A stretch of 64,000 nt of DNA, taken from assembly GCA_963664705.1 (NCBI GenBank), contig OY761556.1, forward strand, positions 2,240,001 to 2,304,000, read 5' to 3'. The stretch is from Acidobacteriota bacterium (lineage in GTDB: Bacteria; Acidobacteriota; UBA6911). The position numbers and the translations under genes are program-made. This document shows, one piece after another, positions 47,009 to 50,225 of the stretch (within the stretch, counting starts at the first letter, position 1; each line of letters starts with the position of its first letter). The notes under the pieces are model-generated. The model saw only the letters and a program-made list of their open reading frames with translations, searched no databases and was not told the DNA's origin.

Positions 47009-47431
47009 CTATTCGCCGATGAGTTTGATCATGATGCGTTTTCTGCGGCCGCCGTCAAACTCGCCGTAAAAGATCTGCTCCCATGGTCCGAAATCCAATT
47101 TGCCATTGGTGATGGCGACGACGACCTCGCGACCCATGATCTGCCTTTTGTGATGAGCGTCGCCGTTGTCTTCGCCGGTTCGGTTGTGATGGTATCGCTG
47201 CGGGCTGGGATCAAAAGGAGCCAGGGCTTCAAGCCAGCGAGCATAATCTTCATGCAGTCCAGGCTCATCGTCATTGATGAAAACGCTTGCCGTAATATGC
47301 ATTGCATTGACAAGTGCCAGGCCCTCCTTGATGCCGCTGTCCCGGAGCGCCTCCTGCACATGTCCCGTGATATTTAAAAACGCCATGCGCGTAGGCAGGT
47401 TGACCTCGATCACTTTGCGATAACTCTTCAT
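47009..47431 (-). CDS. YjbQ/UPF0047 family protein
   Basis: [35 protein letters not shown]. Confidence 0.9.
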
Positions 47432-47513
47432 TTTCCACCTCGCTGCAAAAACCAGACGGTCTCCATTATAGCGGGCCTGTAGTAAAAAAAATCGGAAGCT
47501 TTGTGCCATTCGT

Positions 47514-47572
47514 GGCAATTGGTGGCTGCTTTTTGGCGACGAAGCTAAAGCAAGCCTGCAATCCGCTCCGCG
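47514..47572. repeat. left copy of perfect 59-bp direct repeat
   Basis: GGCAATTGGTGGCTGC...CAATCCGCTCCGCG identical to 49112-49170. Confidence 0.95.
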
Positions 47573-49111
47573 AGAAAATCTGGAAAAATCTGAAAAAATC
47601 TGGACACCCACAAAAAATCTGGACACCCACTATTTTTGAATATTTCTTCGCTCAATTCCCATGGTTCGCCATTAGTAACTATGCAAGGAGGCAAACCATG
47701 GGATTGGCAAGAAACAACTATGTCATCGAAGGGGAGGAAGGTGTTTATCACTGCATCAGCCGATGCGTCCGCAGAGCTTATCTTTGCGGATATGACCCGC
47801 TTAGCGGCCGGGACTTCTCCCATCGAAAAAAATGGATTCTCGATCGCTTGAAACATCTTGCCGGCATCTTCGCCATCGACGTATGCGCTTACGCCATCAT
47901 GGAAAACCACGTGCATTCCATCTTGCGCACTCGACCCGACATTCTTCGCTCCTGGTCTGATTCCGATGTCGCCGCTCGCTGGCTTGAGCTCTGCCCCAGG
48001 AAACCTCGCATCTGCAAACAACCCATTCCTTCTCTAGATAAACAGATCCAGGCATTAATCGATTGTCCGGAACGTATTGCTGTTCTGCGCAAGCGGCTGG
48101 GCAGCCTGAGTTGGTTCATGTCCAAATTCAATGAATTCATCGCGCGTAAGGCCAACAACGAAGACAAGGTCAAGCGCCGCTTCTGGGAATCCCGCTTCAA
48201 ATGCCAGGCACTCCTGGATCTCTTCGCTATTGTAGCCTGCATGGTCTATGTTGATCTGAATCTGGTCCGGACCGGCATTGCTCCCACTCCCGAGGACAGT
48301 GACTTCACTAGCATCCAGGAGCGTATCCGCGCCTGGCATTGCCAAACCTTAGCCCAGCAACCGGCCTCTCAACCCGGTGATTCGGATCCGGCTTCCGATC
48401 ACTCTCCTCTCGAAACCGCTTCCGACAGCTGGCTTTCTCCTATTCAGTCAACCCCCAGCCGACGGGGCATTCTCGACATAACCGCAGCTGAATATTTTGA
48501 TCTGGTCGACCAATCGGGACGCATGATTCGCTCTGATAAGCCCGGCTTCATCGACGCCCGCCTTGCCCCTATCCTGAATCGCATCGGAGCCGTTCCCAAG
48601 GGATGGAGGGAAAGCGTATCGCATTTTGGTTCCACATTCCTGCTAGCCGCCGGCAGTCTGACTCACATGCGTGAATTCGCGGCCCGGTTCAACCGACATT
48701 GGTTCAAGGGTTTGTCAGCCGCTCGAGCGGCTTTCATATAACCTTAAGGATAATCACATTCCAGATCAATAGGATCTGATCTAACCCAATCTACGCATCT
48801 CTTCTAGATTCCGTGATTCCTCCTCGCAATAATTTTGTCCGCCCGACTCCAGCAGAATAGCCAAGCCGGTCACAAGACCGTACTCCAACTTGTCGTAATG
48901 GTCCCTAAAGTGCCGGTCGCCCGATCGATGTCTTGCCTTCGTAGCAGGCTTAAGAACGGGGCAAGGGAAATAACGACGGATGTCCAAGTCTTCTCCCGGT
49001 TTTTCAGGTTTTTTTCGGCATGGGGGATCATGGGGAGCCAGGAATTCGATTTTGGGCAAATCATGGGTGTCCAGGTTTAGCCAGGTTTAGATGGGTGTCC
49101 AGGTTTAGGGC
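47573..49111 (+). mobile_element. 1539-bp HUH/Y1 transposase element with reiterated inverted termini
   Basis: Bounded by 59-bp direct repeats; CTGGACACCCA twice at left, TGGGTGTCCAG twice at right; single transposase gene. Confidence 0.85.
47698..48741 (+). CDS. Y1 (HUH) tyrosine transposase, long RAYT-like type
   Basis: YHCISRCVRRAYLCG, YAIMENHVH (HUH), FWESRFK, YVDLN; AAGGAGG RBS. Confidence 0.9.
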   Translation: MGLARNNYVIEGEEGVYHCISRCVRRAYLCGYDPLSGRDFSHRKKWILDRLKHLAGIFAIDVCAYAIMENHVHSILRTRPDILRSWSDSDVAARWLELCPRKPRICKQPIPSLDKQIQALIDCPERIAVLRKRLGSLSWFMSKFNEFIARKANNEDKVKRRFWESRFKCQALLDLFAIVACMVYVDLNLVRTGIAPTPEDSDFTSIQERIRAWHCQTLAQQPASQPGDSDPASDHSPLETASDSWLSPIQSTPSRRGILDITAAEYFDLVDQSGRMIRSDKPGFIDARLAPILNRIGAVPKGWRESVSHFGSTFLLAAGSLTHMREFAARFNRHWFKGLSAARAAFI

Positions 49112-49170
49112 GGCAATTGGTGGCTGCTTTTTGGCGACGAAGCTAAAGCAAGCCTGCAATCCGCTCCGCG
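49112..49170. repeat. right copy of 59-bp direct repeat (contains the 3' end of the glycosyltransferase-like gene)
   Basis: Identical to 47514-47572; encodes AERIAGLL-stop on the minus strand. Confidence 0.95.
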
Positions 49171-50225
49171 GCGATGCAGTCGCCGCCGGCGCTCAAATCC
49201 GATGGAGGCTCCGGCCGGCTCCAGATCGATTCCAGGCTCTCCCGAAGATTGCCCTCGTACAGCTTTTCCGCGGGAATGTGCAGATGCTTCATATACTTTC
49301 TTATGGATGCCTCGAGGATTGGATATTCGCGAAAATGACTTCGGTCGGCATAAATCAAAGGCTTCCGGTTCACGATGCAGTCGGAGAGGATGCCGAAACC
49401 TGGCTTGGATATCACCGCATCTACCGAAGCAATTGCATCCGAAAATGTCATTTGCTCGCGGCTGATGGCATGAATGTTCCTTCGATGCCATTCCAGCGGA
49501 AGAACCGTAATGAATTCGCAATCCTGAATGCGTTCCACGCGATCCAGCGTTTCTTCACTCCAATCCAGGGTCGTAAATGAAAGGAGGATCCACCTCTTGC
49601 GCTCGTCACAGCCCGTCGCCGCCGCAATTTCGGAACGGCGTGCAATGCCCGGAGAGGCAACCAGCGGAATATCCTCAATGCGTGGAAAAGCCTCCATCTC
49701 CTCGCAGAAAGGAAGACGCAACAGGAGACTCGTCTGTCTGTATTGTTCCTGGAACATTTTGACAACCGGTTCCCAGGCAGCATCACGGGGTACGAATTCC
49801 GAATAAATCCAATCCCAGCCGAAATTGCCCACAGCGATGGAAGGGATTCCCTTGCGAGCCGCAGCCTCGATCGGAATCCCAGGGATATCGGCCACCACTG
49901 CGGCAATCCGATTCGCGGTAAGGAATTCCGATTCTATTTGCACAAGCTCATTCCGCCGATGCCCAATGTGCGAGATTTTCCCAAGGGTGGCGTCGATATC
50001 CACTCGAATGGAGTCCAGTTGAACCATCCCGACATCATAAGATTCGGCGCGAATGGGATTTCGCGTCGAATCCGCCTGATTTGCGATGAAGGCGGCGGGC
50101 AACTGGCTGACGATATGGACAGTCCAATCCGGATACAGCCGGTTGATGGCCCGGATGATGCTGCAGGAGCGCACACCGTGTCCATAGCCATGCGACGTTA
50201 TGTAATAAGCGATGGAAGGAGGCAT
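49143..50225 (-). CDS. GT-B glycosyltransferase-like protein (resembles N-terminal domain of plant L-arabinokinase)
   Basis: YYITSHGYGHGVR, DVGMVQ.DS, NFGWDWIY, ISKPGFG, FREYP. Confidence 0.75.
   Translation of the reverse strand: MPPSIAYYITSHGYGHGVRSCSIIRAINRLYPDWTVHIVSQLPAAFIANQADSTRNPIRAESYDVGMVQLDSIRVDIDATLGKISHIGHRRNELVQIESEFLTANRIAAVVADIPGIPIEAAARKGIPSIAVGNFGWDWIYSEFVPRDAAWEPVVKMFQEQYRQTSLLLRLPFCEEMEAFPRIEDIPLVASPGIARRSEIAAATGCDERKRWILLSFTTLDWSEETLDRVERIQDCEFITVLPLEWHRRNIHAISREQMTFSDAIASVDAVISKPGFGILSDCIVNRKPLIYADRSHFREYPILEASIRKYMKHLHIPAEKLYEGNLRESLESIWSRPEPPSDLSAGGDCIAAERIAGLL

Follow-up and report, generated by a model that had tools for sequence, protein, structure and literature searches.

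The window analyzed here, a 64,000-nucleotide stretch of an Acidobacteriota contig, contains a putative mobile element of 1,539 bp (47573 to 49111) that encodes an HUH/Y1 transposase and carries the same short core, in inverted orientation, at both of its ends, with partial copies of its own tip stacked outside that core. We read this stutter, with guarded confidence, as the probable scar of abortive rolling-circle starts, in which a strand would be nicked some 8 nt outside the core, extended over a short distance, and resealed.

Architecture of the element and its tips

The stuttered stretch from 47573 to 47630 constitutes the left tip of the element (Table 1) and, as the initial annotation had claimed, consists of two truncated and two full units: two of 10 nt (47573 to 47582 and 47583 to 47592), each made up of about 9 nt of sequence preceding the core ("pre-core" bases) and 1 to 2 nt of the core itself, and two identical units of 19 nt (47593 to 47611 and 47612 to 47630). 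The companion claim, that the core is inverted at the far end, was borne out as well, with GGACACCCA found at 47602 (the outer left core, 47602 to 47610, inside the third partial copy) and at 47621 and its inverted counterparts at 49064 and 49092. The distance from the innermost left core to the start codon of the transposase gene is 77 nt (family mode, -74 to -78). The older right tip listed in Table 1 sits about 80 bp further in than the present right end, and an opposite-strand joint, 47639/48981, is present in contigs. This internal tip, the stuttered right end, and the 59-bp direct repeat had gone unmentioned in the initial annotation.

Table 1. Features of the element and its immediate surroundings (positions within the window)
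Feature	Coordinates	Strand	Remarks
Host gene, YjbQ/UPF0047 family, left neighbor	47009..47428	-	
Left copy of perfect 59-bp direct repeat	47514..47572		Likely target duplication
Two outer 10-nt truncated tip copies	47573..47592	+	Unit positions -39 and -29
Third partial left copy (-9 to +9 relative to core)	47593..47611	+	Perfect tandem duplicate, microhomology of zero
Innermost left tip	47612..47630	+	Core GGACACCCA at 47621-47629
HUH/Y1 transposase gene, 347 aa	47698..48741	+	H71-V-H73, Y184; fits TnpA-Y1 subclass 2.3
Older right tip, decayed, internal to the present element, with three stutter units of its own	48977..49015	-	Read from sequence
Inner right core	49064..49072	-	Inverted relative to left core
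Right-end stutter	49073..49111	-	Three units, each from -8; outer core at 49092-49100
Right copy of 59-bp direct repeat	49112..49170		Carries the intact 3' end of the neighboring gene
Host gene, glycosyltransferase-like	49143..50225	-	Weak TIGR00661 match, under cutoff

The transposase and its class

No Pfam model matched the 347-aa protein, and the NCBIfam RAYT model NF047646 matched it weakly (26.5 bits, with a cutoff of 80). Residues H71, H73, and Y184 are conserved at ≥90% in an alignment of 117 sequences (the query plus 116 of the 150 hits listed). A search of PDB sequences gave no match; the predicted structure (pLDDT of 93.7) has TnpA-REP (4ER8; E value, 2.5e-4) as its best fold match, followed by IS200/IS605 transposases. 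In length (347/367 aa), in the distance between the HUH motif and the tyrosine (113 aa), in the extra core segments of the model (one after the strand spanning residues 16 to 23, the other between residues 78 and 137), and in its long C-terminal tail, the protein fits TnpA-Y1 class 2 (RAYT-like) subclass 2.3, the description of which by Quentin et al. (2018) served as the yardstick (length near 325 aa, distance near 110 aa). The class 2 signature, Y---NP, takes the form YVDLNP in the family consensus, yet all nine full copies in this genome read YVDLNL or YVDLNM. A C-terminal helix-turn-helix (HTH) is a trait of the TIRYT proteins of subclass 2.1; here, no Pfam HTH was found, nor did any HTH protein appear among the listed whole-model fold matches.

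Membership of the IS200/IS605 family, with which the initial annotation had compared the ends of this element, is not borne out, and class 2 subclass 2.3 fits better, in view of the protein length of 347 aa, the Y---N signature, the lack of hairpins, and the inverted cores. DNA folding gave no sign of subterminal hairpins, with z-scores averaging -0.1 to -0.3 over 76 left and 63 right ends on both strands, and the Rfam search returned one chance-level match (23 bits, with a cutoff of 60) and no structured RNA. There is no tnpB-sized open reading frame within the element, and a search of the genome with PF01797 identified one other gene and none of the ten copies described below.

Ends across the family

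The protein is encoded in 24 of 41 genomes from a search for relatives and in 8 of 201 from a draw across the phylum (own genome counted in both), and the family amounts to 1,110 clusters at 50% identity, with E values up to 1e-30. Ends were surveyed at 104 loci from relatives and metagenomes plus 9 from this genome, and 5 core calls were later dropped. The core is present at 83 of 90 left ends with enough flank (in 55 cases at -74 to -78) and, inverted, at 69 of 72 right ends, and it recurs in distant relatives, so that the motif is tied to this transposase family, a link that the initial annotation had left to be checked. Because a degenerate pattern was used to define the core, the letter frequencies within it are partly set by construction; its fixed position is not. 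Among distant records (Colwellia, Neptuniibacter, Parasalinivibrio, Ectothiorhodospiraceae, and planctomycetes), of which 25 loci were examined out of 39 fetched, inverted variant cores, read by eye, stand at both ends of 13 of the 25 loci, several of them stuttered, while the strict core pattern is found in only 2 of 25 per side.

Stutter itself was analyzed at 137 ends, once 5 calls on motifs that were internal or pointed the wrong way, 8 with flanks that were short or contained N, and 2 duplicates had been set aside; as these ends are related and were dereplicated only on identical 60-mers, the counts overstate their independence. An exact outer copy of the tip (at least 7 nt) is present at 85 of the 137 ends and an inner-side copy at 12, with controls at about 3 to 10% (6 to 11 of 109 for far-flank anchors and 3.6 of 137 for shuffles). 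Given that 52 of the 137 ends are without an exact copy by this test and that the nearest copy is not a perfect tandem in 37 of the 85 that have one, older layers must have diverged or have been made otherwise.

Copies in the genome and reality of the arrays

The genome holds ten copies of the element at unrelated sites, nine full and one truncated (copy 10). The left core lies 77 or 89 nt ahead of the start codon in all ten, and the inverted right core is present in the nine full copies. The initial annotation had proposed to see whether unit number varies around a fixed core, and it does: the stacks differ at every copy, in number (from one unit to six or more) as well as in sequence, while the core stays in place. 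Two or more units are found at 15 of the 19 ends and a single unit at the remaining 4; the core is missing from the majority of the partial units. Only 1 nt in 1,335 separates copy 4 from copy 5, but they have unlike stacks and flanks. The copies are mosaic, with the first 500 nt common to copies 1 and 2 and the first 1,100 nt common to copies 4 and 6; no long repeats or swapped flanks were found within 6 kb of other copies.

Perfect tandem duplications (period of 9 to 45) occur at 220 loci in the 6.9-Mb genome, and 18 of these lie within 15 nt of a GGACAYCCA core, with about 0.4 expected; given this enrichment of about 40-fold, the stutter is not a matter of chance. We give hardly any credence to the notion that selection maintains the units as an array of binding sites, or that they are an artifact of assembly, a reading that is already largely refuted. 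Multiple subterminal binding sites are common in DDE transposons, and the genome is a single contig, probably assembled from long reads. Against a binding-site array stand the variation in unit number and sequence from copy to copy, the single-unit ends, and the coreless partial units. Long-read assembly error is excluded because short-read contigs, including those of another study, match the arrays exactly: in run X5 of study P3, record 18 covers 47406 to 47648 and record 22 spans 48979 to 49135, including the right array, both with 0 differences. Runs X2 and X3 are concordant with the arrays too, but they possibly represent the source sample itself; one depth-2 contig from X2 has an extra A at 47611. 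The arrays of two other copies were seen as loose ends in short-read contigs.

Several short, gene-less elements with two tips are also stuttered in this genome. Such mini-elements (about 35 to 170 bp) were noted in G000 at 1320210, 1360400, 1362938, 1431078, 2966479, 3307384, 4447370, 4483874, 4542468, and 4551756; their interiors are unrelated, they have stutters of their own, and at 2966479 the pre-core bases are identical in both tips. Beside several of them run degenerate 7-mer microsatellites (1320120 to 1320520, 1362820 to 1363080, and 1489100 to 1489200), which may be stutter from this or another enzyme family. Copy 10 (L134, at about 4155.5 to 4159.3 kb) is cut 390 nt into its gene by a tip in the same orientation, and between it and copy 3 lies a 1.9-kb cargo with a PEP-CTERM-like gene (by eye), possibly making up a composite unit. 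Copies 3, 6, and 9 lie within about 200 bp of tRNA-like genes (by eye). Cores cluster at 4.44 to 4.55 Mb, and within that cluster three solo cores with near-identical flanking bases (4479513, 4536755, and 4548009) sit in coding-looking sequence.

Geometry of the stutter

Of 168 outer copies, 90 begin at -7 or -8 and 117 within the range of -6 to -9; the distribution is unimodal, and its mode is the same whether the copies are short (64 of 113) or long (22 of 42). Their stops are multimodal: 82 of 135 lie 1 to 3 nt into the core and 26 at 9 to 14 nt, with a tail reaching 38 nt. The prefixes ahead of the core vary freely, with 121 different sequences from -9 to -1 among 137 ends, and the left and right prefixes of the same element resemble each other no more closely than prefixes paired at random do (P = 0.30 for -5 to -1 and P = 0.70 for -9 to -6; n = 44). 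The start of a copy is therefore set by distance from the core and not by sequence. Among the perfect tandem duplications, 28 of 48 have a microhomology of 0 and 9 have 1 nt, i.e., at most 1 nt in 37 of 48, a distribution near the no-homology expectation (0.49 and 0.29) and close to blunt joining.

According to the initial annotation, the terminus had been copied or joined repeatedly, by abortive strand transfer, re-nicking, or slippage. Repeated copying or joining is supported by the present data, but not as a product of strand transfer alone, at least part of the growth having followed insertion (see below), and slippage is disfavored by the 28 duplications with zero microhomology. In a broader form, in which replication slippage or unequal recombination in the host expands an A-rich tip without the transposase, that explanation strikes us as very improbable. 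The pre-core bases are A-rich, slippage can change the number of units once two of them exist, and the copies clearly recombine; the first duplications, however, are without microhomology, their anchoring is by distance to the core whatever the local sequence, they are strongly one-sided (the 85 outer versus 12 inner copies), and tandem duplications are enriched at cores throughout the genome.

The inner endpoint of the copies is, with its 82 of 135 cases at 1 to 3 nt, also sharply peaked, and which end of a duplication was cut is not distinguishable from sequence alone. The same enzyme could accordingly have worked with the opposite polarity, nicking the complementary strand 1 to 3 nt into the core, with an outward extension that stops about 8 nt outside it. 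We regard this as quite unlikely, given that a single mode describes the outer endpoint of short as well as long copies, whereas the inner endpoint has a second mode and a long tail, and given that joins to the target fall outside the core, at -7 to -11, with the pre-core bases of the window copy absent from its target.

Junctions and target sites

A perfect 59-bp direct repeat hugs both arrays of the window copy and duplicates the 3' end of the glycosyltransferase-like gene; its left copy contains the last 28 nt of that downstream gene, with the stop codon, followed by 31 nt beyond it. The repeat fixes the junctions at -9 on the left and at -8 or -11 on the right, which is where the stutter units begin. 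Since the pre-core bases are absent from the repeat, they came with the element, and the idea that such bases always derive from the current target was rejected on that ground. The repeat is a single example, since in 42 of 43 elements no flanking direct repeat exceeded the permutation null, and there is no regular target duplication. It is also far longer than usual target duplications and the sole case among the 43 elements with both flanks. An 8-bp tip repeat at copy 4 was considered and dismissed as not significant (6-bp matches occurred in 0.4% of permuted pairs and in 1 of 43 observed). At copy 10, the join between the interrupted gene and the tip falls at -7 to -9; a duplication of 13 nt (-18 to -6) at that junction is not what a simple model with starts at -8 predicts.

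The element is missing from the window site in syntenic loci of relatives in the genus (about 70% identity). A metagenome scan for same-species loci with empty sites gave 80 loci, all at 56 to 64% protein identity, and no joint skipping the element was found at two loci in the contigs of six runs (X7 was without coverage, and X5 was without coverage on the flanks of copy 4). Nor was a clean empty site found in a comparison of genomes G042 and G017: in G017, three alleles are free of the element, but about 30 to 150 nt next to it are likewise missing or different, and these alleles show no target duplication. The extra DNA on both sides of the G042 locus L159 has no convincing match elsewhere in five genomes, and one other G042 site has no orthologue in G017. 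In one metagenome locus, judged by eye, the left flank of one G042 site adjoins the right flank of a second one; unless the contig is chimeric, this pairing suggests deletion and rearrangement instead of intact empty sites. The element has presumably transposed.

Growth after insertion and exchange in place

One inherited site is shared by G042 and G017, with flanks 94 to 97% identical and genes 95% identical. The duplication seen where this insertion ends on the right measures 9 nt in one lineage and 34 nt in the other, and the left stacks differ as well; because orthologous insertions thus carry different duplications at the same junction, units have been added in place after insertion. At two other sites shared by these genomes, the resident genes are only 79 to 90% identical, and five sibling copies in G042 differ by 14 to 40 nt, with a common inner layer beneath outer units specific to each site, a pattern that points to replacement or conversion in place. 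Near-identical copies had been taken as proof of recent jumps; that argument is weakened, since the copies are mosaic and replace one another in place, so that near-identity alone cannot date a jump.

An explanation that we consider unlikely, though deserving of weight, is that the stacks arise mainly during insertion, the 3' end of the target being extended on the donor tip, falling off, and starting again (iterative template switching). The junction of copy 10, which duplicates known target plus tip, agrees with it, as do the inner layers common to the siblings in G042 and the window copy itself, which looks young (its 59-bp repeat is free of mutations) although its ends have already reached 4 and 3 units. 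Microhomology is the usual trace of template switching, however, and most joins have none, and the different duplications at one junction of orthologous insertions need events after insertion.

Across species and samples, the same sites were also seen to be filled by elements 79 to 96% identical (L176/L015/L054, L168/L187/L055, and L172/L089/L090/L091). Divergence at these co-occupied sites looks much higher in the tips than in the flanks, which suggests long residence, replacement in place, and a mutation-prone tip zone. In G042, the open frames at L159, L172, L176, and L179 measure only 222 to 243 aa (4 of 6 copies), suggesting broken genes.

Proposed mechanism

Cleavage by HUH enzymes yields a 5'-phosphotyrosine together with a free 3'-OH (PMC3333891, in its accessible part). 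In the reading that we favor, the transposase would bind the core and nick the core-bearing strand about 8 nt 5' of it, with the 5' end on the element side held as phosphotyrosine; we infer both the position of the nick and the nicked strand from the pattern of the copies. A host polymerase would then extend the freed 3'-OH of the flank into the element, displacing the bound strand, and would in most cases come to a halt within the first 1 to 3 nt of the core, to which the protein is bound, and in fewer cases immediately beyond the core or up to about 38 nt in. When the new 3'-OH attacks the phosphotyrosine, the tip would gain one partial copy on its outer side, and the cycle could recur at a resident element long after insertion. 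With a foreign 3'-OH as the acceptor, the same nick would serve transposition, and the 59-bp direct repeat around the window copy would result if two joins of this kind had been made on opposite strands at a spacing of 59 nt.

Nicking, extension, and resealing predict a fixed start, a variable stop, and no microhomology. We count in favor of this scheme the polarity of the copies, the modes of their starts and stops, the low microhomology, the growth in place, the junctions, and the fold of the protein. The mechanism as a whole is drawn from patterns in the DNA.

More tentatively, and on balance doubtfully, subclass 2.3 might represent a large, uncharacterized family of insertion sequences with an undescribed chemistry, in which each of the two equivalent inverted ends would serve as a rolling-circle origin, with a nick about 8 nt outside the 9-bp core. 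The two 5' ends would be transferred to 3'-OH groups of the target, one on either strand, in a mirror image of DDE transposition that gives no fixed target duplication; re-nicking by the resident enzyme would let tips grow, graft new tips onto neighboring DNA, and have copies replace one another in place.

Comparison with known systems

With IS200/IS605 elements (IS608 and ISDra2), the window element shares the HUH/Y1 core fold and the lack of a regular target duplication. The accessible descriptions of that family give it subterminal hairpins, no inverted repeats, and one active strand, whereas the window element has no hairpin signal, symmetric inverted ends, the class 2 signature, and no tnpB. 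IS91 uses a Y2 transposase. In the accessible part of PMC13181058, its two ends, oriIS and terIS, are unlike, its HUH enzyme is presumed to start rolling-circle displacement, and there is no target duplication; the presumed start of displacement at an end and the lack of a target duplication are likenesses, whereas the two ends of the window element are alike and inverted.

TnpA-REP (REPtrons) provides the nearest solved fold (4ER8), and for it the same chemistry of nicking, extension, and re-ligation has been proposed: in the model of BIME amplification of Ton-Hoang et al. (2012) (PMC3333891), as far as its available text goes, a nick is followed by extension of the 3'-OH and attack on the phosphotyrosine, which adds a tandem unit, and the stop is set by a second cleavage. 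In the accessible REPtron literature (PMC3333891; Corneloup et al. 2021, PMC8266576), tnpA-REP is mostly single copy, with no evidence of mobility; here, in contrast, there are ten copies at unrelated sites and no GTAG-footed hairpins. Bertels et al. (2017), in the part available, describe RAYT group 1 as the most insertion sequence-like.

Another close system is that of the TIRtrons (TIRYT) of Di Nocera, De Gregorio, and Rocco (2013) (PMC3733652), in the accessible text of which a RAYT-like Y1 gene is framed by inverted repeats and not by REPs. As in those elements, an inverted core is present at both ends of all nine full copies here, without REPs, and short two-tip mini-elements occur elsewhere in the genome; the core also fits the last 6 of the 8 positions of the consensus GGGGWSAS (the first two are usually CT), a consensus common to only some of the TIRs. 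In contrast, what is repeated here is confined to a short core, beyond which the sequences are unlike, and the same text, as far as accessible, contains no stutter, target duplication, or mechanism; its 26 examples fall in subclasses 2.1, 2.2, and 2.5, with none in 2.3. Quentin, Siguier, Chandler, and Fichant (2018) (bioRxiv 10.1101/279083, PMC6006769), in the portion available, describe subclass 2.3 as being without REP-like flanks and without high intragenomic conservation, whereas we find inverted cores and stutter across the subclass and copies that differ by as little as 1 nt in 1,335; the copies here moreover read YVDLNL or YVDLNM, not NP. A literature search, with subscription journals, figures, and supplements that may bear on the matter lying outside its scope, gave no account of stutter or of the ends of subclass 2.3.

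Inverted-repeat Y1 elements are thus already known, in the form of the TIRtrons of 2013; what is added here is a genome with ten copies, statistics on starts, stops, and microhomology, divergence at the same site, and one junction fixed by a 59-bp repeat. The published classification (PMC6006769), in its accessible text, leaves the DNA substrates of subclass 2.3 undefined, and from the stutter one can predict, for an orphan HUH transposase and in a form open to experiment, which core is bound, which strand is cut, and where (at about -8). If right, our reading would explain how an enzyme that acts on single strands can deal with inverted ends that are symmetric, a question unanswered since TIRtrons were named in 2013, and it would lend sequence support to the nick-extend-reseal model of REP/BIME amplification.
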